A model generated the notes under the pieces. It ran no database searches. It saw only the letters and a program-made list of their open reading frames with translations, and had not been told where the DNA came from. 25,773 bases of DNA, taken from assembly GCA_046727335.1 (NCBI GenBank), contig JBKPCL010000008.1:1-25773 (forward strand). Direction: 5' to 3'. Within the stretch, counting starts at the first letter, position 1, and each line of letters opens with the position of its first letter. Source of the DNA: Actinomycetota bacterium (GTDB lineage Bacteria > Actinomycetota > Acidimicrobiia > IMCC26256 > PALSA-610). Both the position numbers and the translations under genes were made by a program. Below are positions 4,137 through 25,773 of the stretch, piece by piece.

Positions 4137-4652
4137 GTGGTCGGTACGATGCGCGCCGCCATGCCACCCGTCGACGAGGTCCAGTTGCTGCCTGACCCCG
4201 AGCAGCACAAGCTGCTCGCGGCGACGCTCGAACGCGTGAACCGGGCCAGCAACGCGGCGCGCGCGACCGCGCTGCAGCGCAACACGTTCGAAGGCGCCGC
4301 GTTGCGCGAGCTCGTGAAGGAGGAGGTCGAGCGGGCCAAGTTGCCGGACGGATTGGTCCGACCGATCACCGACCGCGTTGCCGCGTCGCTGGCGCGGCGA
4401 GCCGGAAAGCAGCCGAAGTTCACGACGTACCAGTCGCTCACGATGCCGGCGTCCGCGTTCAAGTGGGGTGGCTCGGATCGAGTGACGATGTTGACCGCTG
4501 CGGGGCGCCGCACGGTTTCGGTGCGCGTCGACCGCAGCCGCGGCGATCTGCGGCCACCCCTTGCGGGCCGTCCGGCCACGCTCGTCTACCGCAACGGCGA
4601 GTTCGAGCTCCTCGCCGCCGACGTCGACCGCACCCCCGCCGACGACGAGTAG
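4137..4652 (+). pseudogene. TnpB (IS200/IS605 OrfB)-like N-terminal fragment: HTH_OrfB_IS605 and partial WED region only, with no RuvC or zinc-finger domain. Probably a truncated IS remnant.
   Basis: The 171-aa ORF reads ...EVQLLPDPEQHKLLAATLERVNRASNAARATALQRNTF..., matching the TnpB N-terminal consensus (rlyPt.eQ...L....g..RfvyN.al). It continues ...FKWGGSDRVTMLTAAGRRTVSVRV...ATLVYRNGEFELLAADVD, which is WED-like. It stops at 4652, immediately before a convergent intact hydrolase gene. No space or sequence for a RuvC domain follows. Confidence 0.5.
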
Positions 4653-8198: not shown

Positions 8199-9647
8199 GT
8201 GGTACCCGATGGGCTCGTCGCGGTCGTGAAGCGGGACTGCCCGACCTGTCAGCTCGTGGTGCCGGTGCTCGCGCAGCTGGCGCAGCACGGCACAGGCGGC
8301 GGGGAGCCGCTCATTATTTACTCACAGGACGATCCGACATTCCCGGACGGCCTCCACGCGCGCGATGACACCGGCCTCGAGCTGTCGTTCGCGCTCGATA
8401 TCGACACGGTGCCGACGCTGCTGCGCATGAAGCGTGGTGAGGTCGTCGATCGGACCGAGGGCTGGGAGCGGAGCCGCTGGGAGTCGTTGACCGGCATCGA
8501 CGAGCTCGGTCCCGGTCTCCCTGACTGGCGACCGGGTTGCGGATCGCGCACGCACGATCCGGATGTCGTCGACGCCCGCACCGTCGCAGCGACGTTGCCG
8601 AAGCTGCGCGCGCGCCGGATCGAGTTCGGCGAGTCCGAGGACGAGCACGAAGCGATGTTCGCCCGCGGGTGGAGCGACGGTCTGCCGCTCGTGCCGCCGA
8701 CCCCGGAGCGCGTCGCGCGCATGCTGGCCGGCACGCACAGAGATCCCGCCGACGTCGTCGCCGTGGTGCCGCCCGATCTCGTCGAGTGCACCGTCGAGAA
8801 GATCGCGATCAACGCGGTCACGGCCGGCTGCCGTCCGGAGTATCTGCCGGTCGTGATCGCGGCGGTGGCAGCCGCGTGCACGGACGAGTTCAACATCCAT
8901 GGTGTCCTCGCGACGACGTGGTTCGCGGGCCCACTCGTCATCGTCAACGGACCGATCGCACGGCGGATCGGCATGAACTCGGGGGTCAACGCGCTCGGCC
9001 AGGGCAATCGCGCCAACGCGAGCATCGGCCGCGCGCTGCAGCTCGTCGTCCGCAACGTCGGCGGCGGCCGCCCGGGTGAGGTCGACCGAGCAACACTCGG
9101 CAACCCCGGCAAGTACACGTTCTGCTTCGCGGAGGACGAAGCCGGATCGCCGTGGGAACCGTTGCACGTCGAGCGCGGCCTCACGCCCGATACTTCCGCA
9201 GTGACGCTGTTCGCGGCCGAGGGCGCACGGGGCGTCGTCGATCAGCTGTCTCGCAATCCCGAGTCGCTGGCGCGCAGTTTCGCCGCGTGCCTGCGCACCG
9301 TCGCGCACCCGAAGAACGTGATCATCTGGGATGCGGTGCTCGTCGTGTCGCCCGAGCATGGTCGGGTGTTCCGCGAAGCCGGCTGGTCGAAGGCGCGTCT
9401 GCGCGAGGAGCTCGATGGGCTGCTGCAGATCCCGGGCGAAGAGGTCGTGCGCGGCGCAGGCGGCGTTGCCGAAGGGATGCCCGAACAGTTACGGGCGTTG
9501 ACGCTCCCCAAGTTCCGCGACGGCGGACTACAGATAGTCCATGCGGGCGGCGGTGCGGGACTGTTCTCGGCGATCATCGGCGGGTGGGCGAGCGGGGCGA
9601 TTGGCAGTGAACCGGTGACCCGACGCATCGAGGAGCCAGCACCGTGA
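8199..9647 (+). CDS. thioredoxin-like (CPTC) domain fused to a ~400-aa uncharacterised domain; first gene of the UGSC selenoprotein operon
   Basis: The N-terminus VAVVKRDCPTCQLVVPVLAQLAQHG...VPTLLRMKRGEVV is a thioredoxin fold with a CxxC motif. The large C-terminal domain (…GVLATTWFAGPLVIVNGPIARRIGMNSGVNALGQGNRANASIGRALQLV…) could not be assigned to a named family. Its stop overlaps the next gene's GTG in a GTGA junction. Confidence 0.7.
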   Translation: MVPDGLVAVVKRDCPTCQLVVPVLAQLAQHGTGGGEPLIIYSQDDPTFPDGLHARDDTGLELSFALDIDTVPTLLRMKRGEVVDRTEGWERSRWESLTGIDELGPGLPDWRPGCGSRTHDPDVVDARTVAATLPKLRARRIEFGESEDEHEAMFARGWSDGLPLVPPTPERVARMLAGTHRDPADVVAVVPPDLVECTVEKIAINAVTAGCRPEYLPVVIAAVAAACTDEFNIHGVLATTWFAGPLVIVNGPIARRIGMNSGVNALGQGNRANASIGRALQLVVRNVGGGRPGEVDRATLGNPGKYTFCFAEDEAGSPWEPLHVERGLTPDTSAVTLFAAEGARGVVDQLSRNPESLARSFAACLRTVAHPKNVIIWDAVLVVSPEHGRVFREAGWSKARLREELDGLLQIPGEEVVRGAGGVAEGMPEQLRALTLPKFRDGGLQIVHAGGGAGLFSAIIGGWASGAIGSEPVTRRIEEPAP

Positions 9648-10174
9648 CGAGAACCGTCCTCGACCCGACGTCTGAACGGCAGCCGACGACGCGCGAGCGG
9701 GCGCCGCGTCCGCCGTCGATCGACGGCCGGCGGGTCGCGCTGCTCGACATCTCGAAGCCGCGAGGCAACGTCTACCTCGACCGGCTCGAGGAGTTGCTGC
9801 GAGCACGCGGCGTGGAGGTCGAGCGATTCGCCAAGCCGACGTTCACGAAACCGGCGCCCGTCGACCTGCGGCACGAGATCACGACGAAGTGCGACGTCGT
9901 CATCGAAGCGCTCGCCGATTGAGGATCGTGCACGTCGTGCAGTGTGCACGACACCGTCAACATCGAAGCGGCGGGCGTGCCGATGGTATTCGTCGCGTCC
10001 ACCGAGTTCGTCGACGCGGCCGCGGCGCAGGCGCGTGCGCTCGGCGCCGATCCCGCGCGAGTCTTCGTGCCACATCCGATCCAGGACCGGACCGACGAAG
10101 AGCTGCGGGCTTTGGCCGACGAGTCGCTCGAGGCAATCCTCGAGACGATCATCGGGGGCCTCGCCCCGGGATGA
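9644..10174 (+). CDS. UGSC-family selenoprotein (176 aa) with in-frame TGA = selenocysteine at 9920-9922 in a U-G-S-C (UxxC) redox motif
   Basis: Track ORFs 9644..9922 and 9944..10174 share one frame and are separated only by the TGA. The read-through product is ...KCDVVIEALAD-U-GSCTSCSVHDTVNIEAAGVPMVFVASTEF..., reproducing the family-defining UGSC motif (CGSC in Cys-homologues). A strong hairpin starts 4-11 nt after the TGA. Confidence 0.7.
9926..9952 (+). promoter_or_regulatory. candidate bacterial SECIS element (stem-loop directing Sec insertion at UGA 9920-9922)
   Basis: cgtgcacGTCGTGCAgtgTGCACGACac can form two alternative 8-bp helices. One pairs 9934-9941 with 9945-9952. The other pairs the GTGCAC palindromes at 9926-9933 and 9944-9951 around a 10-nt loop. 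Either helix starts 4-11 nt downstream of the UGA, the expected bSECIS spacing. Confidence 0.45.
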
Positions 10175-10189
10175 GGGAGCGAGGCTGCA

Positions 10190-10891
10190 TTGCTATTGCT
10201 GCACGAACTGCACACGGTTGCCGGCCGTCACGAGGACGACTTCGAGACGGCCTTCCGTGACGGCTGGATGCCGCAGGTCGCGACCGACTCCGGCGCCCGC
10301 CTCCTCTATTACCTGAAGCTCGCGCACGGCACCGGCCGCGCGTACCACGTCGTAACCATCACCGTGTTGCGCGACGGCGGCGCGTACGAGCGGCTCGTGC
10401 AACGCGTGCAGCGAGGTGATCTGCGCGCCTGGGCCGCGGACGTCGACCGGTTCCGGCATGAGGTCGAAGGAAAGGTCCTCGTCCCCGTCGAATGGTCACC
10501 GATGCGGGACGTCGACTTCGCGTCCGTTCCGACCGACGGCCGCACGCACGAGAGCGCGCTCTACATGGAGGACAGCGCGTGGCCCTACGAGGCAAAGCTC
10601 GACACGTATCTCGAGGCGGCCCGCACGCACTACGCGCCGAGTCTCGAGCAGCGGACAGAACGGTCGCTGCTCACGCTGCTCGCCGTCTTCCAAGCCGCGC
10701 TCGGCGCACCGCGCCGCCGCGAGGTCGTCTTGTGGCAGCGGGTCGACTTCCCGGAACGCTTGCCCGCATTGTTCACGCGCGAGTTGCCGCCCCACGTCAA
10801 GGGACCGGGCACATGGATGCACGACGCGCTCGAGGTGCGTGACGACTGGCAGAGCCGCCTGCTCCGCACCGCCGAGTGGAGCCCCTACTGA
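10190..10891 (+). CDS. NIPSNAP-like / Dabb-fold protein (233 aa), last gene of the selenoprotein operon
   Basis: The TTG start lies 16 nt after the UGSC stop and is preceded by GGGAGCGAGG. The N-terminal ~100 aa (HELHTVAGRHEDDFETAFRDGWMPQV...LLYYLKLAHGTGRAYHVVTITVLRDGGAYERLVQRVQ...WAADVDRFR) fits the NIPSNAP/stress-responsive dimeric alpha+beta barrel pattern. Confidence 0.5.
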   Translation: MLLLHELHTVAGRHEDDFETAFRDGWMPQVATDSGARLLYYLKLAHGTGRAYHVVTITVLRDGGAYERLVQRVQRGDLRAWAADVDRFRHEVEGKVLVPVEWSPMRDVDFASVPTDGRTHESALYMEDSAWPYEAKLDTYLEAARTHYAPSLEQRTERSLLTLLAVFQAALGAPRRREVVLWQRVDFPERLPALFTRELPPHVKGPGTWMHDALEVRDDWQSRLLRTAEWSPY

Positions 10892-18613: not shown

Positions 18614-18727
18614 TCCGATTCGCGCGAGTCGTGGCTAAATCGGAGAAAGACAGCCGCCATCTCCTCTTCCAGACGCGTCGTCCACCCTGTACCTTCCGCG
18701 GTTGCGGGCGGATCAGGGAGGGGCAGG

Positions 18728-21700
18728 GTGGGACTCGGACGTCGCGGCCTGGTGCTGGTCGCAGCCCTAACGCTGTTCACGCTCATGCCGGTGCGTCCGG
18801 CGTTCGCAGCGGCACCCGTTGCATCGGACGGAACAGCGACCGTCGTTGAAGACACGCCGACGCCGATCACGCTGGATGCGACCGACGCGGACGGGGACAC
18901 GCTGACGTATAGCGTCGTCGACCAGCCGACCCACGGGCAGGTGACGTGCGATTCCGCGGGATCGTGCACGTACACGCCAGACCTCAATTACAACGGCTCC
19001 GACTTGTTCACGTTCAGCGCGAACGACGGCACCAGCGACTCCAACACCGCGACTGTCACCATCACGGTCACGCCGGTCAACGATCCGCCCGTCGCGAGCA
19101 ACGCGACGCTGAGCGTTCCCGAGGACGGCAGCGCGCCGATCACGCTCGTCGCGCTCGATCCCGACCTCGATCCACTCACGATCAGCATCGTCGATCAGCC
19201 GACGCACGGAACGCTCACCTGCGACTCGGCGGAATCGTGCACGTATACGCCCGACGCGCTGTACCACGGCACCGACTCGTTCACCTTCAACGCCAACGAC
19301 GGGACGGTCGACTCGAACACCGCGACGGTGAGCATCACGGTCACGCCGGTGAACCACCCGCCCGTCGCCAGCAACGGCACGCTCACGGTCGCCGAAGACA
19401 GCGGCGCCTCGCCCGTGACGCTGCACGCGACCGACGTCGACGGCGACCCGCTCACCTATGCGATCGTCGCCCAGCCCCCGCACGGCACGGTGGGTTGTGA
19501 CGCCGGCGGCTCACCGAACTGCACCTACACACCCGATGCGCTCTACAGCGGCCCGGACTCGTTCACGTTCCGCGCCAACGACGGCACCGTCAACTCGAAC
19601 ACCGCCACGATCAGCGTGACGGTGTCGGCCGTCAACCACGCGCCGGTCGCGAGCAACGGCACCATGAGCGTCGCCGAAGGCGGCAGCGGCCCGGTCACCT
19701 TGAGTGCGTCGGACCCCGACGGGGACTCGCTGACGTACACAATCCTCACTCAACCCGGCCACGGCACGGTGTCGTGCACCCCGTCCGGATCACCGAACTG
19801 CACCTATGCAACGAGCGCTCCGAACTACAACGGCTCGGACGCGTTCACCTTCCGCGCCGACGACGGCCAGCTCAACTCGAACGTCGCCACGGTCAACGTC
19901 ACGGTCACGCCGGTCAACGACCCGCCGGTCGCGACGAACGGCACCATGACCGTGCCCGAGGACGGCAGCGGCGGTGTGACGTTGCACGCCACCGACATCG
20001 ACAGCCCCACGCTGACCTACTTCATCGTCGCCCAGCCCGCACACGGCAACGTGATCTGCAACCCGTCCGGCGGACCGACGTGCACCTACACCGCCAGCGA
20101 CGCCAACTACAACGGGCCCGACTCGTTCACCTTCCGCGCCAATGACGGCCAACTCAACTCCAACATCGCCACCGTCGACGTCACGGTGACCCCAGTCAAC
20201 GATCCGCCCGTCGCTAGCGACGACACGCTGACGGTGTCGGAAGGCAACAGCGCGCCGATCACGCTCACCGCGAGCGATGTCGACGGCGACTCACTCACCT
20301 ATGCGATCGTCGCGAACCCGCAGCATGGCAACGTCAGCTGCGGAGCCGGCGGTTCACCGGACTGCACCTACACGCCGGATGCCAACTACAGCGGTGCCGA
20401 CTCGTTCACCTTCCGCGCCAATGACGGGACGGCCAATTCCAACACCGCGACCATCAGCGTCACCGTCTCGGCGGTGAACCACGCACCCACCGCCAGCAAC
20501 GGAACCTTGAGTGTCGCCGAAGGCGGCAGTGCTCCGCTCACCTTGTCCGCGTCCGACCCTGACGGTGATTCGCTCACCTATTCCATCGTGGCCCAGCCGA
20601 CCCACGGAACCGTCACGTGCGCTCCCGCCGGCTCAGCGAGCTGCACCTATACAACGAGCGCCCCGAACTACAACGGCTCGGACGCGTTCACGTTCCGCGC
20701 CAACGACGGGCAGCTCGACTCGAACGTCGCCACCATCAACGTCACCGTCACCCCCGTGAACGACCCGCCGGTTGCGACGAATGGAACGATGACCGCGCCC
20801 GAGGACGGCAGCGGCGGCGTCACGCTGCACGCGACCGATGTCGACAGCCCCACCCTCACCTACTTCATCGTCACCCAGCCCGCGCACGGCAACGTGGTGT
20901 GCAGCCCGGGCGGCTCGCCGAACTGCACGTACACCGCGACCGACCAGGACTACAACGGTCCCGACTCGTTCACCTTCCGCGCCAACGACGGCCAACTCGA
21001 CTCCAACACCGCGACCGTCACCGTGACCGTGACGCCGGTCAACGACCCGCCCGTCGCCACCAACGGCACCGTGGGCGTTGCCGAAGGCGGCAGCGCGTCG
21101 GTCACGCTGCACGCGACCGACGTCGACGGCGACCCACTCACCTATGCGATCGTGGCCCAGCCCCCGCACGGCACGGTGGGTTGTGACGCCGGCGGCTCAC
21201 CGAACTGCACCTACACGCCCGATGCGCTCTACAGCGGGCCGGACTCGTTCACCTTCCGCGCCAACGACGGCACCGTCAACTCCAACACCGCCACGATCAG
21301 CGTCACCGTCTCGTCCGTCAACCACGCGCCGGTCGCGAGCAACGGCACCATGAGCGCGTCCGAGGACGGCAGCGGCGGAGTAACGCTGCCGGCTACCGAT
21401 CCGGACGGCGACTCGCTCACCTATTCGATCGTCACTCAGCCCACCCACGGACATGTCGGCTGCACTCCGTCGGGTGCGCCGACGTGCACGTACTCGTCGA
21501 CGGATCCCAACTACAACGGACCCGACTCGTTCACCTTCCGGGCCAACGACGGCAGCCTCGACTCGAACGTCGGGACGATCAGTGTCACCGTCACACCGGT
21601 GAACGATCCGCCTGTCGCGACCAACAGCACCGCGAGCATTCCCGAGGACGGCAGCGGCGGCGTGACCCTCCACGCCACCGACATCGACACCGCCACACTC

Positions 21701-24700
21701 ACGTACGCGATCGTCACCCAACCGAGTCACGGCACGGTGACCTGCGGTCCAGGCGGCTCACCGAACTGCACCTACACCGCGACCGACCAGGACTACAACG
21801 GTCCTGACTCGTTCACGTTCCGCGCCAACGACGGCCAGCTCAACTCCAACACCGCGACGATCAGCGTCACGGTCACGCCTGTCAACGACCCGCCCGTCGC
21901 CACCAACGGATCCCTGGGCGTTGCCGAGGGTGGCAGCGCGCCGGTGACGCTGCAGGCGACCGACGTCGACGGCGACACACTTTCATACGCGATCGTCACG
22001 CAACCGAGTCACGGCACCGTGACGTGCGGTGCCGGCGGCTCACCGAACTGCACCTACACACCCGATGCGCTCTACAGCGGCCCGGACTCGTTCACCTTCC
22101 GGGCCAACGACGGCACCGTCAACTCCAACACCGCCACGATCAGCGTCAACGTCTCCGCCGTCAACCACTCGCCGGTCGCGAGCAACGGCACATTGAGCGC
22201 GGCAGAAGGCGGTAGCGCACCGGTCACGCTCAGTGCGAGCGACCCCGACGGTGATCCACTTACTTATTCGATCCTCACCCAACCCGGACATGGCACCGTG
22301 TCGTGTAACCCGGCCGGCGCTCCGACCTGCACCTACACCGCGACCGAGCCGAACTACAACGGCCCTGACGCGTTCACCTTCCGCGCCAACGACGGCCAGC
22401 TCAACTCCAACACCGCGACGATCAGCGTCACGGTCACGCCTGTCAACGACCCGCCCGTCGCCACCAACGGCACCCTCACCGTCGCCGAAGACTCGAGCGC
22501 ATCCGTCACCTTGCATGCGACCGACGTCGACAGCCCATCACTCACCTATGCGATCGTGGGCCAGCCCGCGCACGGCAACGTGATCTGCAACCCGGCGGGC
22601 TCACCGACCTGCACGTATACCGCGACCGACACCGACTACAACGGCGCGGACGTCTTCACGTTCCGAGCGAACGACGGCCAGACGAACTCCAACGTCGCGA
22701 CGATCAGCGTCACCGTCACGCCGGTGAATGACGCGCCGGTGGCCAGCGACGGCACGGTGACCGTCGCCGAGGAGTCCAGCGCGCCGGTCACGTTGCACGC
22801 GACCGACGTCGACAGCGGGACGCTCACCTACACGATCGTCAGTCAACCCGTGCACGGCCAGGTCGGATGCATTCCGGACGGATCGCCGAACTGTACGTAC
22901 ATCGCGACCGACCCGAACTACAACGGTCCCGACTCGTTCACGTTCCGCGCCAGCGACGGCCAGGCCGACTCGAACACGGCAACGATCAATGTGACGGTCA
23001 CACCCGTCAACGATCCACCCGTCGCCGCTGATGGCACCCTCACCGTCGCGGAAGACGGCAGCGCGCCGCTCACACTCCACGCCACCGACATCGACAGCCC
23101 CTCGCTGACGTACACCATCGTGGGCGCTCCGGCCCACGGCCAGGTGACCTGCAACCCGGCCGGCGCCCCGACCTGCACCTACACAGCAAACGACTTGAAC
23201 TACAACGGCCCCGACTCGTTCACGTTCCGCGCCAACGACGGCCAGAGCGCGTCGAACATCGCAACCGTGACGGTCACGATCACGCCCGTGAACGACCCGC
23301 CCGTCGCGACCAACCGCACGGTGTCAGTTCCGGAGGACAGCTCCAGTGCGGTAACGCTGAGCGCGACCGATCCCGACGGCGATGCGCTGTCCTACTCCGT
23401 CGTCACGCCGCCCACGCATGGCGCGGTGGCCTGCACGCCGGCCGGCTCGCCGAACTGCACGTACACCGCGACCGAGCTCAACTACAACGGCCCCGACACC
23501 TTCACGTACAAAGCCAACGACGGTCAGGCCGACTCGAACATTGCGTCCGTGAGTGTCACGGTGACACCCGTCAATGATCCGCCGGTCGCGACCAACGGCA
23601 CCCTGACCGTCGCCGAGGATGGCAGCGCGCCGGTCACCCTGCATGCGATCAACATCGACGGCGACATCCTGAACTACTCGATCGTGACCCAGCCGCTCCA
23701 CGGCGTCGTGACGTGCACACCGGCCGCATCGCCGAACTGCACCTACACCGCGACCGACCTGAACTTCAACGGCTCCGACTCGTTCACCTTCAAAGCCAAC
23801 GATGGGCAGCTTGACTCGAACGTCGCAACGGTCACGGTCACGATCACGCCTGTCAACGACGCCCCCGTCGCGCTGGATGGCGCGATCTCGGTCGGGAACG
23901 ATGGGCTGGAAGCCTTCACGCTCGCCGCGAGCGACGTCGACGCCGACCCGCTCACGTACACCATCCTCACGCAGCCCGCGCACGGCACCGTCACATGCAC
24001 ACCGGCGGGCAGTCCCAGCTGCACATTCACGACGACCGACAGCCACTTCACGGGCAACGACCAGTTCACCTTCCGCGCCAATGACGGTCATGTGAACTCG
24101 AACGTTGCGACCGTGATCGTCGCGGTCGCGTCGATCAACCAGCCGCCCATCGTGACCAACGGGACGCTGTCGGTTCCCGAAGACGGCAGCGCACCGATCA
24201 CGCTCACCGGCACCGACCACGAGAACGACCAGCTGACGTTCTCGATCATCGCGGCGCCGATCCACGGCACCGTCGTCTGCAACCCGCTCGGGCCGCAATC
24301 GGTGGCGTGCACGTTTACCGCCAACGACCCGAACTACAACGGTCCCGACTCGTTCACGTACCGAGCGAACGACGGTCAGGCCGACTCGAACATCGGCACG
24401 GTGTCTGTCACGATCACGCCGGTCGACGACGCTCCCGTCGCGGCCGCGGGCACCTTGACGCTCGACGAGGACACCAGCGCGCCCATCACACTTCACGCAA
24501 CCGACATCGACAGCGGCTCTCTCACCTACGCGATCGTCACCCAGCCGGCCCACGGCTCTGTGAACTGCAGCCCGGCCGCTGCCGCGACCTGCACCTACGA
24601 CGCGACCGACCTCAACTACAACGGCCCGGATTCGTTCACGTTCCGCGCCAACGACGGACAGCTCAACTCGAACGTCGCAACGGTCACCGTGACCATCACG

Positions 24701-25773
24701 CCGGTCGACGACGCGCCTGTCGCGAACCCAGACTCCGTGACGACCAACGAGGATCAGATCACGACGATCACGAGGGCGTTCCTCCTCTCGAACGACACGG
24801 ACGTCGACAGCCCGGCGCCGACGTTCACCGCGATCGTCCTGCCGCCGTCCGACGGGACACTGACCGTCGTCACGGGCGGCTACACCTACACGCCCAACCC
24901 CGACTTCAACGGCACCGATTCCTTCACCTACCGGATCTCGGACGGTTCACTCACCGACGAAGGTGTCGTCACGATCCACGTGACGCCGGTGAACGATCCG
25001 CCGGTCGCGAACCCAGACGGGCCCATCTCCGTCGAGGTGAACCAGCAGCTGGTCGTCAACGCGCCGGGCGTGCTCGGCAACGACACGGACGTCGACGGCG
25101 ATCACCTCACCACCTCGCTCGTCACCGGGCCGTTGCACGGAACGTTGTCGCTGCACGCCGACGGTTCGTTCACGTTCGACCCGGGGCTCAACTACCTCGG
25201 CAACGACTCGTTCTCGTACCGGGCAGTCGATCCGTCCAGCGCGAAGAGCGCCACGGTGACCGTCTCGCTGAAGGTCGCGTTCGGCGTGTTGCCGATCAAC
25301 TTCTTCGGGACGGCCGGTCCCGATAATCAGGGCTTCATCGGATCGCTGACGCAGGGGTTGAACGTCGACCTGCGAGGCGGGAACGACACCTATCGGCTGT
25401 TCTTCGGCGGACTCAACGGCCTGGTCACGATCAAGGACTCCGGCAACGACAGCGGCGACCGACTCATCGTCAGCGGCACGACCGGCAACGACACGATCTC
25501 GGTGGTCGGCAACCAGGTCACCTGGAAGACCCAGAAGATCCAGTACTCAGGCATCGAGCGCCTCGACGTGCTCGCCGGGAACGGCAATGACACCGTCAAC
25601 GTCGACGCCCATTCGCTCGGCGCGGCAGTGCGCACGATCGACGGTGGCGCAGGAACTGACATCTTGTCGATCAACGCGAGCGGTCTCGACGCTCACGTCT
25701 CCGGCAACACGCTCTTCATCAACGGTCGTGGCGCGCTGACGTTGTCCGGCTTCGAGCGGATTTCGTTGACGAG
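18728..25773 (+). CDS. giant secreted repeat protein (partial, more than 2,340 aa in window): Sec signal peptide + 21 tandem-95/Ig-like repeats + 2 cadherin/VCBS-like domains + RTX-type calcium-binding beta-roll repeats. Putative adhesin or surface protein.
   Basis: The GTG at 18728 is preceded by AGGGAGGGG. The signal peptide VGLGRRGLVLVAALTLFTLMPVRPAFA|AAP is typical. The frame is open to the window end, so the gene is absent from the track, which shows only Arg-rich alternate-frame shadows. The repeat consensus is ...PVNDPPVA-(S/T)NGT.TV.EDGS.PVTLHATDVDGD.LTY.IV.QP.HGTV.C.P.GSPNCTYT....YNGPDSFTFRANDGQ.DSN.ATV.VTVT... Confidence 0.85.
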   Translation, partial: MGLGRRGLVLVAALTLFTLMPVRPAFAAAPVASDGTATVVEDTPTPITLDATDADGDTLTYSVVDQPTHGQVTCDSAGSCTYTPDLNYNGSDLFTFSANDGTSDSNTATVTITVTPVNDPPVASNATLSVPEDGSAPITLVALDPDLDPLTISIVDQPTHGTLTCDSAESCTYTPDALYHGTDSFTFNANDGTVDSNTATVSITVTPVNHPPVASNGTLTVAEDSGASPVTLHATDVDGDPLTYAIVAQPPHGTVGCDAGGSPNCTYTPDALYSGPDSFTFRANDGTVNSNTATISVTVSAVNHAPVASNGTMSVAEGGSGPVTLSASDPDGDSLTYTILTQPGHGTVSCTPSGSPNCTYATSAPNYNGSDAFTFRADDGQLNSNVATVNVTVTPVNDPPVATNGTMTVPEDGSGGVTLHATDIDSPTLTYFIVAQPAHGNVICNPSGGPTCTYTASDANYNGPDSFTFRANDGQLNSNIATVDVTVTPVNDPPVASDDTLTVSEGNSAPITLTASDVDGDSLTYAIVANPQHGNVSCGAGGSPDCTYTPDANYSGADSFTFRANDGTANSNTATISVTVSAVNHAPTASNGTLSVAEGGSAPLTLSASDPDGDSLTYSIVAQPTHGTVTCAPAGSASCTYTTSAPNYNGSDAFTFRANDGQLDSNVATINVTVTPVNDPPVATNGTMTAPEDGSGGVTLHATDVDSPTLTYFIVTQPAHGNVVCSPGGSPNCTYTATDQDYNGPDSFTFRANDGQLDSNTATVTVTVTPVNDPPVATNGTVGVAEGGSASVTLHATDVDGDPLTYAIVAQPPHGTVGCDAGGSPNCTYTPDALYSGPDSFTFRANDGTVNSNTATISVTVSSVNHAPVASNGTMSASEDGSGGVTLPATDPDGDSLTYSIVTQPTHGHVGCTPSGAPTCTYSSTDPNYNGPDSFTFRANDGSLDSNVGTISVTVTPVNDPPVATNSTASIPEDGSGGVTLHATDIDTATLTYAIVTQPSHGTVTCGPGGSPNCTYTATDQDYNGPDSFTFRANDGQLNSNTATISVTVTPVNDPPVATNGSLGVAEGGSAPVTLQATDVDGDTLSYAIVTQPSHGTVTCGAGGSPNCTYTPDALYSGPDSFTFRANDGTVNSNTATISVNVSAVNHSPVASNGTLSAAEGGSAPVTLSASDPDGDPLTYSILTQPGHGTVSCNPAGAPTCTYTATEPNYNGPDAFTFRANDGQLNSNTATISVTVTPVNDPPVATNGTLTVAEDSSASVTLHATDVDSPSLTYAIVGQPAHGNVICNPAGSPTCTYTATDTDYNGADVFTFRANDGQTNSNVATISVTVTPVNDAPVASDGTVTVAEESSAPVTLHATDVDSGTLTYTIVSQPVHGQVGCIPDGSPNCTYIATDPNYNGPDSFTFRASDGQADSNTATINVTVTPVNDPPVAADGTLTVAEDGSAPLTLHATDIDSPSLTYTIVGAPAHGQVTCNPAGAPTCTYTANDLNYNGPDSFTFRANDGQSASNIATVTVTITPVNDPPVATNRTVSVPEDSSSAVTLSATDPDGDALSYSVVTPPTHGAVACTPAGSPNCTYTATELNYNGPDTFTYKANDGQADSNIASVSVTVTPVNDPPVATNGTLTVAEDGSAPVTLHAINIDGDILNYSIVTQPLHGVVTCTPAASPNCTYTATDLNFNGSDSFTFKANDGQLDSNVATVTVTITPVNDAPVALDGAISVGNDGLEAFTLAASDVDADPLTYTILTQPAHGTVTCTPAGSPSCTFTTTDSHFTGNDQFTFRANDGHVNSNVATVIVAVASINQPPIVTNGTLSVPEDGSAPITLTGTDHENDQLTFSIIAAPIHGTVVCNPLGPQSVACTFTANDPNYNGPDSFTYRANDGQADSNIGTVSVTITPVDDAPVAAAGTLTLDEDTSAPITLHATDIDSGSLTYAIVTQPAHGSVNCSPAAAATCTYDATDLNYNGPDSFTFRANDGQLNSNVATVTVTITPVDDAPVANPDSVTTNEDQITTITRAFLLSNDTDVDSPAPTFTAIVLPPSDGTLTVVTGGYTYTPNPDFNGTDSFTYRISDGSLTDEGVVTIHVTPVNDPPVANPDGPISVEVNQQLVVNAPGVLGNDTDVDGDHLTTSLVTGPLHGTLSLHADGSFTFDPGLNYLGNDSFSYRAVDPSSAKSATVTVSLKVAFGVLPINFFGTAGPDNQGFIGSLTQGLNVDLRGGNDTYRLFFGGLNGLVTIKDSGNDSGDRLIVSGTTGNDTISVVGNQVTWKTQKIQYSGIERLDVLAGNGNDTVNVDAHSLGAAVRTIDGGAGTDILSINASGLDAHVSGNTLFINGRGALTLSGFERISLT
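18812..24722 (+). repeat. 21 head-to-tail ~282-nt (94-aa) coding repeats, 'tandem-95 repeat'/bacterial Ig-like type, two Cys per repeat
   Basis: Each repeat boundary is marked by the PVN(D/H)(P/A)PVA junction, and 21 units were counted by translation. The repeats are coding-frame conserved, not CRISPR-like. Confidence 0.85.
19370..22755 (+). repeat. higher-order repeat: four copies of an ~846-nt unit made of three successive 94-aa repeats (types A-B-C)
   Basis: Repeats 3/6/9/12 end ...TYTPDALYSGPDSFTFRANDGTVNSNTATISVTVS(A/S)VNHAPVA. Repeats 4/7/10/13 read ...LSASDPDGD.LTY.I.TQP.HGTV.C.P.G.P.CTY.T..PNYNG.DAFTFRA. Repeats 5/8/11/14 read ...TLHATD.DSP.LTY(F/A)IV.QPAHGNV.C.P.G.P.CTYTA.D.(N/D)YNG. 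Corresponding segments such as 19440-19690 and 21128-21380 are about 93-95% identical at the nucleotide level. Confidence 0.6.
25330..25773 (+). repeat. RTX/hemolysin-type calcium-binding nonapeptide (beta-roll) repeats at the C-terminal side of the giant protein
   Basis: The motifs recur as LRGGNDTY..., DSGNDSGDRL..., GTTGNDTIS..., LAGNGNDTVNV..., DGGAGTDILSI... (G-G-x-G-(N)-D-x-[LIV]). Confidence 0.55.

Follow-up and report, generated by a model that had tools for sequence, protein, structure and literature searches.

A UGSC-family selenoprotein and its conserved neighbour: a candidate two-part selenium-dependent reductase

With which partner, and in what kind of chemistry, does a UGSC-family selenoprotein act? 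Since 2007–2008 this family has been counted as one of the prokaryotic selenoprotein families that dominate by abundance in aquatic metagenomes; for its proteins, the original prediction knew of no function, and reviews up to 2026 still list none. The question is raised here by three consecutive genes, A, B and C (Table 1), within a 25.8-kb stretch of DNA (the window). The original prediction treated all three as one coupled redox module, composed of a thioredoxin (Trx)-like fusion protein, a selenoprotein and a NIPSNAP-like protein. It also likened the CxxC/UxxC pair to thioredoxin and selenoprotein A of glycine reductase.

Table 1. Positions of the genes, domains and motifs discussed in the text
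Feature	Coordinates	Strand	Description
Gene A	8199..9647	+	482 aa ORF (ORF/translation); N-terminal thioredoxin domain and ~345-aa C-domain
Thioredoxin-fold domain of gene A	8199..8483	+	Residues 1–95
CPTC redox motif of gene A (Cys14/Cys17)	8238..8249	+	Codons 14–17, direct reading
C-domain of gene A, conserved UGSC partner	8601..9644	+	Residues ~135–482
Cys211 codon, C-domain of gene A	8829..8831	+	AINAVTAGC here; consensus AINAVMAGC
Gene B, UGSC-family selenoprotein	9644..10174	+	176 aa through in-frame TGA; GTG start 9644–9646
In-frame TGA, selenocysteine U93	9920..9922	+	Motif U-G-S-C-T-S-C, context ...EALAD-U-GSCTSC...
SECIS-like hairpin GUCGUGCA-GUG-UGCACGAC	9934..9952	+	8 bp; 14–32 nt past U of UGA
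Gene C	10190..10891	+	233 aa, TTG start, cysteine-free, weakly NIPSNAP-like

Gene B carries the selenocysteine (Sec)-containing motif assigned to it originally and belongs to the UGSC family. It scores 158.6 bits against Pfam UGSC PF24696 (cut-off 25; E 2.2e-46) and 155.8 bits against NCBIfam NF041046 (cut-off 125; E 7.2e-46), and the U/C-G-S-C motif is present. Its full-length Cys homologues are 43–58% identical to it. The codon column of the selenocysteine holds TGA in frame in 80/80 species loci and TGC/TGT in six more distant ones, a distribution far beyond chance; TGA is also found in 53 of the 58 readable metagenomic UGSC partners. In the hairpin that follows the TGA, 97.9% of cells are paired over 64 distinct sequences, and the synonymous positions within it are fixed in Sec loci but free to vary in Cys loci. 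Covariation is little, with one compensated pair (G-C to A-U, three sequences). The genes selA, selB, selD and tRNA-Sec were not found within the window. Structure prediction gives UGSC a flavodoxin/Rossmann-like fold instead of the Trx-like fold guessed in a 2008 paper.

The gene A product is, as first described, a CPTC-bearing thioredoxin fold joined to a large domain; its AF2 model has a pLDDT of 94.6 and a pTM of 0.91. Domain 1 shows the features of the thioredoxin superfamily: it has the Trx fold, a CxxC where helix 1 begins and a loop that carries the cis-Pro. Among 90 aligned gene A homologues, 80 have residues at the CPTC columns (Cys14 in 78, Cys17 in 76), and 78 retain the cis-Pro, P72. 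The domain reaches 16.5 bits against TIGR01068 (curated cut-off 96.8) and 11.6 bits against Pfam Redoxin (cut-off 26.6). It stays below the curated thioredoxin cut-off (TIGR01068/PF00085) and is Trx-like rather than a canonical thioredoxin.

More than 8000 homologues of gene A were found; identity is 73–91% in the best 120, and the named sources are Acidimicrobiia. Clustered at 50% identity, the C-domain itself spreads over more than 6000 protein clusters. Searches of Pfam, NCBIfam and PDB sequences with this domain, alone and over 41 diverse homologues, returned no match, and it has no relative among solved structures. The domain belongs to no characterised family; the original prediction likewise could not assign it to a named one. 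Its best-conserved cysteine is Cys211, a candidate catalytic residue present in 86/87 aligned homologues, and Cys309 is less strict (79/88). Conserved alongside them are the invariant polar residues D160, T240, R271, N273, R278, K305, E312 and H387. The fusion partners of the C-domain are thiol/selenol modules only: Trx, Redoxin/AhpC or UGSC. Judging from the sequences compared, the Trx domain is an optional add-on, being absent, or swapped for a Redoxin/AhpC domain, in other lineages.

The link between the two genes is far more constant. A gene A homologue lies just upstream of UGSC on the same strand in 79/80 species loci, which cover Acidimicrobiia, Myxococcota/Deltaproteobacteria, Chloroflexi, Acidobacteria, Spirochaetales and others. 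In the window the genes share the predicted GTGA overlap at 9644–9647, the stop codon of gene A occupying 9645–9647. Of the 80 species loci, 60 show an overlap or a projected gap no longer than 30 nt, and 74 stay within 120 nt; six Cys-type loci have the identical arrangement with a 4-nt overlap. Divergent metagenomic C-domain genes adjoin a same-strand UGSC in 64 of 80 loci, where UGSC lies upstream in 50 (fused in frame in 13 of these) and downstream in 14. UGSC was not detected in 9/80 metagenomic loci with sufficient flanking DNA, nor within 5 kb upstream of one tandem C-domain protein. Natural UGSC–C-domain fusion proteins exist (P0461, P0482, P0499 and P0444), and the AF2 model of P0499, with a pTM of 0.85, predicts a single compact unit. 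The pair occurs in at least 593 species representatives. Relatives of Ferrithrix, Ilumatobacter and Microthrix are represented in the scanned genome loci, and PMC1976440 names Hyphomonas neptunium as a carrier.

The conserved core is the C-domain plus UGSC, and the A–B linkage is nearly universal. The coupled CxxC/UxxC unit initially proposed survives as a dedicated, conserved pairing of the Trx-fusion protein with UGSC, but its CxxC domain is dispensable in many lineages. As a UGSC-family member ("UGSC-containing protein" of Zhang and Gladyshev), the gene B protein itself is no different from those already described; what is new is its near-obligate partner context. The 2008 paper noted UGSC fused to an unnamed "Unknown_1", the sole mention of a partner in the searchable literature, and the C-domain is a candidate for its identity.

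Gene C has a different standing. The gap that separates it from gene B does contain GGGAGCGAGG, in line with the Shine–Dalgarno sequence proposed there, but is 15 nt long, not 16. Its similarity to NIPSNAP/Dabb-fold proteins (PF07978) is weak: residues 16–104 score 19.0 bits, below the gathering score of 22.3, although a match recurs in 10/16 homologues (best E 3.7e-4). No sequence relative was found in the PDB. Gene C follows UGSC at 0–45 nt in the window and in the loci of eight listed close relatives (L009, L010, L011, L016, L029, L067, L087 and L088), and its homologues adjoin A–B wherever their location was looked up. Over the species set, it adjoins the pair in 6/80 loci (in one more it lies 4 kb away), all of close Acidimicrobiia relatives and mostly with serC synteny. 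It is absent from 73/80, including the closest locus, L007, and from the Cys-type and metagenomic loci. The neighbourhood check suggested with the original prediction therefore returned the Trx-fusion partner and not the NIPSNAP-like one.

A joint relay of the Trx fusion, UGSC and gene C, for which the close spacing in this sublineage speaks, runs against the evidence from the family at large, and we regard it as very improbable. Gene C lacks cysteine and is confined to the sublineage of the window, which places it outside the relay; for the most part it occurs where the serC synteny is kept, its NIPSNAP score is below threshold, and no NIPSNAP link to UGSC appears outside that one sublineage. 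Gene C is a passenger or an accessory gene particular to its lineage, outside the conserved unit.

Other neighbours are no more constant. Beyond A–B the flanking genes vary and in most cases lie on the opposite strand, which makes A–B a self-contained bicistron. Promoter and terminator scans contributed nothing to this picture. De novo clustering of the neighbours at 84 loci revealed, beyond the pair, only lineage synteny (a MutY-like gene and an MBL hydrolase in Acidimicrobiia). Redox genes occur occasionally: a TrxR-like gene that shares 4 nt with A (L002), MsrB (L004) and a UxxC Prx/TlpA-like selenoprotein (L021). The adjacency of TrxR, MsrB and serC is limited to one lineage each. ABC or Tct transporters, a glycogen debranching enzyme, a luciferase-like monooxygenase and an aldo-keto reductase likewise vary by lineage, and the gene context therefore offers no clue to the substrate.

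UGSC also bears comparison with selenoprotein B. The sequence U93-G-S-C96-T-S-C99 of gene B conforms to the U-x-x-C-x-x-C signature of GrdB/F/H (PMC6778437, PMC13188914): in GrdB/F/H and PrdB, as in UGSC, Cys residues stand at positions +3 and +6 relative to Sec. In eight of 12 UGSC members the Sec region matches the GrdB/GrdF/GrdH NCBIfam models, with E values of about 1e-4 to 1e-2, and hhalign places Sec on Sec when UGSC is aligned with GOS PrdB/GrdB-like sequences (E 0.006). The likeness is weak. Gene B obtains 20 bits against TIGR01917 (cut-off 602) and 16.4 against TIGR01918 (cut-off 65.45), below the curated selenoprotein B cut-offs, and has no PF07355 match. The motif together with this weak but recurrent similarity points to selenoprotein B (GrdB/F/H, PrdB) rather than selenoprotein A. 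The proposed thioredoxin/selenoprotein A analogy is accordingly abandoned, as UGSC does not carry the CxxU of GrdA.

The genetic organisation is also reminiscent of these systems. In PrdA/PrdB and in GrdE/G/I with GrdB/F/H, as in A–B, the gene of a small alpha/beta selenoprotein adjoins that of a larger partner, and thioredoxin, the electron donor of glycine reductase, is built into gene A. However, the N-terminal stretch of GrdB/PrdB that Pfam GRDB describes is missing from UGSC, and the partner subunit of A–B is not of the GrdE/PrdA type: the C-domain does not resemble GrdE/PrdA (PF09338), and neither a pyruvoyl proprotein signature, nor a T-C cleavage motif like T420/C421 of PrdA, nor other evidence of a pyruvoyl cofactor was found. 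Gene A, 41 homologues and the scanned window genes gave no match to Gly_reductase or any other grd/prd family, and the window contains no GrdA, GrdC/D, PrdC or PrdH. The hosts differ as well, being aerobic for A–B (Acidimicrobiia, Myxococcota and others) and Stickland fermenters for Grd/Prd. Another parallel is offered by fusions of thioredoxin with its client, such as Trx-MsrA/MsrB (PilB), or by the NrdH/Trx-ribonucleotide reductase pairing; as in gene A, a CxxC Trx fold is coupled to the reductase that it regenerates. Unlike these, the A–B system also includes a separate selenoprotein, and the Trx domain of gene A falls below the curated thioredoxin HMM cut-offs.

UGSC nearly always adjoins or is fused to the C-domain, and here comes with its own thioredoxin; the pair is therefore probably a two-part selenium-dependent reductase. 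More specifically, and with a confidence slightly better than even, we read A and B as a cytoplasmic, thioredoxin-recycled, selenoprotein-B-like two-subunit enzyme, whose catalytic core is the C-domain and the flavodoxin-like UGSC. We infer the following order of events. The C-domain, which carries Cys211 and the invariant polar residues, would bind the substrate. Sec93 of UGSC, at the strand-to-helix junction, would then act as the nucleophile or reductant, and Cys96, possibly with Cys99, may resolve the selenium adduct, yielding a selenenylsulfide. The latter would be re-reduced by Cys14/Cys17 of the tethered Trx domain, with electrons presumably supplied by NADPH/cellular thioredoxin reductase. 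This logic would parallel that of D-proline reductase (PrdA and PrdB) and protein B of glycine/sarcosine/betaine reductase. In the Prd system, the attack of PrdB Sec on the substrate held on PrdA is documented (PMC11229817).

Several other explanations have to be weighed against a selenoprotein-B-like reductase. The pair might serve in antioxidant defence or repair. As a thiol-dependent reductase or peroxidase, the C-domain would act on some cellular molecule that has been oxidised (a sulfoxide, hydroperoxide, persulfide or damaged cofactor). The substrate would then oxidise Cys211, while UGSC and Trx would shuttle electrons to it, Sec working as a redox relay and not as a carbon-attacking nucleophile. 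We consider this unlikely, but by a good distance the most serious of the alternatives. It would suit the near-invariance of Cys211, the AhpC/TSA-Redoxin domain (E 1e-16) that takes the place of Trx on some C-domains, the aerobic aquatic and soil bacteria that serve as hosts, and the abundance of UGSC, which ranks with the commonest selenoprotein families of surface waters (PMC2398784). The MsrB, TrxR-like flavoprotein and Prx/TlpA-like selenoprotein genes that adjoin some proteobacterial loci fit as well, yet each is found in a single lineage only. The C-domain, moreover, resembles no known peroxidase or Msr fold, and a pure relay leaves unexplained both why UGSC, not Trx, is the invariant partner and why its UxxCxxC motif is like that of selenoprotein B. 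Still less probable, in our view, is a role in selenium or sulfur trafficking or maturation, in which UGSC would carry Se/S or a bound metal to or from a C-domain acting as a transferase or maturase.

The most sceptical reading takes the TGA as a true stop, gene B as two small unrelated ORFs and the A–B adjacency as a coincidence of synteny. Gene callers do systematically split gene B at the TGA (into pieces of 90–108 aa and 73–76 aa), the Rfam scan found no SECIS or other RNA match, and the single-sequence fold downstream of the TGA has an unexceptional z-score of only -1.0. However, both halves of gene B match one HMM, Cys replaces the TGA in full-length homologues, and the TGA with its conserved hairpin is kept in 80/80 species across phyla. 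The adjacency persists where all other flanking genes differ, in metagenomic loci too, and fusions exist. Taken together, these observations refute the artefact, to which we assign practically no probability.

These findings turn the annotation problem of UGSC into a defined biochemical experiment. UGSC emerges as one half of a fixed two-component unit, for which the partner domain, its invariant residues and the natural fusions have now been identified, and its Sec motif is now linked to selenoprotein B. The partner, in turn, represents a large protein family with neither a Pfam model nor a solved structural relative. We speculate, tentatively and somewhat short of an even chance, that the C-domain and UGSC constitute an unrecognised, widespread class of selenium-dependent two-component enzymes, in which a Sec nucleophile, like that of selenoprotein B, would carry out small-molecule reduction or reductive cleavage in aerobic aquatic and soil bacteria. 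If true, this would explain the abundance of UGSC in ocean and freshwater metagenomes.

The window that carries genes A, B and C has a G+C content of 68%, and metagenome-assembled genomes (MAGs) of Acidimicrobiia supply the nearest source-named database relatives of its proteins. Genes A and B meet in the GTGA at 9644–9647, as originally predicted, with the TGA stop of A lying over the GTG start of B. The spacer expected before gene C is also there and contains GGGAGCGAGG, but it is 15 nt long and not 16 nt. Upstream of gene A are genes for a WS/DGAT acyltransferase and a class-V aminotransferase (serC-like), the latter ending 27 nt before A. Gene C is followed by a convergent hypothetical gene and then by genes for a beta-lactamase-fold protein, an acyl-CoA dehydrogenase, an SPFH protein, an MFS transporter and a giant Big_9/cadherin-repeat protein. 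This last ORF (>2386 aa, at least 23 Big_9/cadherin-like repeats) continues past the window end and presumably encodes a surface adhesin. Searches of the 25.8-kb window found no tRNA, no Rfam family and no gene of the selenium machinery. Reading the sequences by eye, we saw no obvious signal peptide at the N-terminus of A or B, which points to a cytoplasmic system.

Coordinates of the window genes and of features in homologous loci (locus number before the colon)
Feature	Coordinates	Strand	Remarks
Gene A	8199-9647	+	482 aa; N-terminal part ...VVKRDCPTCQLV...; TGA stop overlaps gene B start
Gene B	9644-10174	+	GTG start; TGA stop 10172-10174; 176 aa if TGA 9920-9922 is read through
Gene C	10190-10891	+	TTG start; 233 aa
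Giant repeat ORF	18614-25773	+	continues past window end
UGSC split at TGA	L088:4486-5001		public gene calls
UGSC split at TGA	L093:7291-7827	-	public gene calls
UGSC split at TGA	L087:4308-4965		public gene calls
ORF between A fragment and UGSC	L020:867-5906	-	Dormibacterota MAG; 1679 aa
TrxR-like flavoprotein (Pyr_redox_2)	L002:3576-4532	+	Cys-type locus
MsrB	L004:3907-4410	+	just upstream in Cys-type locus
Prx/TlpA-like (AhpC/TSA) ORF	L021:3910-4503	+	in-frame TGA 4147-4149, motif W-U-P-Y-C
C-domain gene by SBP	L095:5001-7154	+	SBP_bac_5/SBP_bac_1 neighbours
C-domain gene by SBP	L093:8124-9755		SBP_bac_5/SBP_bac_1 neighbours
C-domain gene by SBP	L091:2725-3579		SBP_bac_5/SBP_bac_1 neighbours

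Gene B scores 158.6 bits against PF24696 (cut-off 25) and 155.8 bits against NF041046 (cut-off 125), and by these profiles is a full, ordinary member of the known UGSC family. Its in-frame TGA, in the context ...VVIEALAD-U-GSCTSCSVHD..., encodes selenocysteine (Sec, U93); the data contradict a true stop. When a single genome was scanned for each species, at least 593 species had a UGSC gene, and in the 80 best loci, which were analysed, the TGA is kept in frame throughout (80/80) within [IV]EALAD-U-GSC[TS][ST]C. Full-length Cys homologues with the motif CGSC share 43–58% identity with B. An 8-bp hairpin, GUCGUGCA-GUG-UGCACGAC, lies 14–32 nt past the UGA; in an alignment of 64 distinct sequences, pairing holds in 97.9% of cells, five pairs are invariant, and one G-C pair is compensated to A-U in three sequences and becomes G-U in three more. 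In Sec loci of different phyla the synonymous positions of the hairpin codons stay fixed; in the three Cys loci that were examined they are free to vary. The region has no match in Rfam and its single-sequence fold is unremarkable. Taken together, there is good evidence for a putative SECIS-type element, with thin covariation. Public gene calls break UGSC selenoproteins in two at the TGA (ORFs of ~90–108 aa and 73–76 aa), so database counts of the family are distorted; at L087 the A gene is miscalled too.

The prediction that the first protein combines a CPTC thioredoxin (Trx) fold with a large domain outside named families is borne out. The first ~95 residues of A adopt a thioredoxin fold: a four-sequence profile of them matches PDB thioredoxins (E 2e-5), with CPTC falling on the active-site motif CGTC/CGPC and VPT72 on the IPT that holds the cis-Pro. 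The same part falls below curated thioredoxin HMM thresholds, and we therefore call it Trx-like and not canonical. The remaining ~345 residues (C-domain) gave no match to Pfam and NCBIfam models, searched with A and 41 diverse homologues, or to PDB sequences. Conservation was counted over 90 A homologues: Cys14 and Cys17 are present in 78/80 and 76/80 of those possessing the N-terminal domain, Cys211 (consensus AINAVMAGC) in 86/87 and Cys309 (YTFCFAE) in 79/88, and D160, T240, R271, N273, R278, K305, E312 and H387 are essentially invariant. A fifth cysteine, Cys114 (8538–8540; motif PGCGS), sits in the linker that joins the Trx domain to the C-domain and is kept in 78 Trx-fused homologues.

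The Trx-fusion partner proved recurrent: an A homologue lies directly upstream of UGSC on the same strand in 79/80 species loci. In the sole exception (L020) a 1679-aa reverse-strand ORF separates the two, which may reflect an insertion or misassembly. A tblastn search of 86 loci with three queries (Trx part, C-domain, gene C) found the C-domain in all 86, and the Trx part, with one exception, wherever upstream DNA was available. Projected from the A stop to the first UGSC residue, the genes overlap in 30 loci and are separated by 1–30 nt in 30, by 31–120 nt in 14 and by 130–268 nt in 5. Cys-type loci (~50% identity), in which a Cys codon replaces the TGA, keep the same order with a 4-nt overlap among wholly different neighbours (Tct transporter and GntR, nitrate reductase, ABC transporters). 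Clustering of all ORFs revealed no further gene recurring beyond lineage synteny, and the genes that flank the pair in other phyla mostly lie on the opposite strand or are functionally unrelated; A–B is thus a self-contained bicistron.

Gene C does not belong to this unit, and the data contradict the three-protein module originally proposed. Its recurrence, raised originally as a check, was not borne out: it is directly downstream in just 6/80 species loci (L009, L010, L011, L016, L029 and L067), with one further copy 4 kb off (L008). The loci bearing it are close relatives from one sublineage, mostly with common serC synteny, and the closest locus, L007, is without it. Its assignment to the NIPSNAP/Dabb fold is weaker than originally put: the NIPSNAP match scores 19.0 bits, below the 22.3 threshold, and recurs in 10/16 homologues; no relative was found among PDB sequences, and the protein has no cysteines.

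Approached from the other side, an exhaustive profile-free search returned 6141 clusters (50% identity) with a relationship to A, and for 1550 of these E is <= 1e-30. The C-domain occurs standalone (~350 aa), with an AhpC/TSA-Redoxin domain in the place of Trx (~530 aa), in tandem (P0432) and fused to UGSC (P0461, P0482 and P0499; P0444 is what follows the TGA in a Sec-containing fusion). At L090 a standalone C-domain gene precedes a Sec-containing UGSC gene with an ATGA overlap; at another locus (L093/L094) UGSC comes first with a C-domain gene after it, and a second C-domain gene lies on the opposite strand. Metagenome contigs were scanned with an alignment of standalone C-domains, and 64 of the 80 best loci (40–54% identity to the query) have an adjacent same-strand UGSC, 50 upstream (13 fused in frame) and 14 downstream. 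Seven of the other 16 are cut off on one or both sides; the remaining nine have no detectable UGSC despite at least 700 nt either side. Among the partners whose motif can be read (58), 53 have the TGA. UGSC falls into two subclasses that follow gene order: upstream or fused copies typically read U-G-S-C-T-S-W, so the third Cys is not universal, and downstream copies, as in the window, U-G-S-C-T-[ST]-C. This reciprocal linkage makes C-domain plus UGSC the invariant association; the Trx domain is accessory, being missing or replaced in some lineages. Several divergent C-domain genes, including the tandem P0432, adjoin ABC-transporter solute-binding proteins (SBP_bac_5, SBP_bac_1), which in this small sample may point to a small molecule taken up as substrate.

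The AF2 prediction for P0499, a natural fusion (pLDDT 87.8, pTM 0.85), folds the UGSC part into a beta-alpha-beta sandwich and places C/U-G-S-C where strand 3 meets the next helix. All structure matches listed for the Trx-less fusion model span 103–173 residues and are generic Rossmann/flavodoxin-type alpha/beta folds, which we attribute to the predicted UGSC part. In glycine/sarcosine/betaine reductases (Grd), UxxCxxC after Sec defines GrdB/F/H and CxxU defines GrdA (PMC6778437, PMC13188914). The UGSC motif is exactly UxxCxxC, so the analogy with selenoprotein A drawn originally is not supported. The window protein and 8/12 family members weakly match full-length NCBIfam GrdB, GrdF and GrdH (E ~1e-4 to 1e-2) over the Sec region (residues 79–150 on model positions 333–399); Pfam is silent because its GRDB model stops just before Sec. 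With hhalign, PrdB/GrdB-like sequences from the GOS supplementary dataset align over 77 columns, Sec on Sec and Cys+3 on Cys+3, albeit weakly (E 0.006, probability 6%). These similarities are suggestive of a remote homology to selenoprotein B, which is not established; actual membership is ruled out by the scores and the absence of GrdE/PrdA-type partners.

In Grd and D-proline reductase (Prd), the selenium adduct is resolved by a Cys next to it, giving a selenenylsulfide. Thioredoxin is the reductant of glycine reductase. In D-proline reductase the substrate sits on PrdA, the Sec of PrdB attacks it and PrdC regenerates the enzyme (PMC11229817). Mapping this mechanism onto the documented linkage, fusions, Sec usage and folds of A–B gives the best-supported model by analogy, from which we infer a relay order and reaction type: the C-domain would be the substrate-binding catalytic subunit, the Sec of UGSC would act as nucleophile or reductant, Cys96 (and Cys99) would resolve the adduct, and the tethered CPTC domain, itself fed by cellular thioredoxin reductase, would recycle UGSC. 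The chief alternative, which we consider unlikely, is a reductase for antioxidant defence or repair with Cys211 as redox centre, where UGSC and Trx would only pass electrons on. Speaking for it are the occasional neighbours of the MsrB, Prx-like and TrxR kinds, the Redoxin fusions and the aerobic hosts. A carrier or maturation role for the pair seems to us less likely still. Across loci, no neighbour is consistent enough to suggest a substrate.

The TrxR-like flavoprotein of L002, whose gene overlaps the start of the A homologue by 4 nt in one lineage, and the MsrB of L004 are single-lineage redox neighbours. In a proteobacterial MAG (L021), the Prx/TlpA-like ORF directly upstream of the A homologue has a hydrophobic N-terminal stretch, possibly a membrane anchor, and is a candidate second selenoprotein in the same cluster.

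Save for a one-line 2008 mention of a 'UGSC/Unknown_1' fusion, the following are absent from the literature searched: the near-obligate reciprocal pairing of UGSC with a large uncharacterised domain family, the architectural range of the latter (Trx-fused, Redoxin-fused, UGSC-fused and standalone), and the predicted flavodoxin-like fold of UGSC with its selenoprotein-B-type motif.
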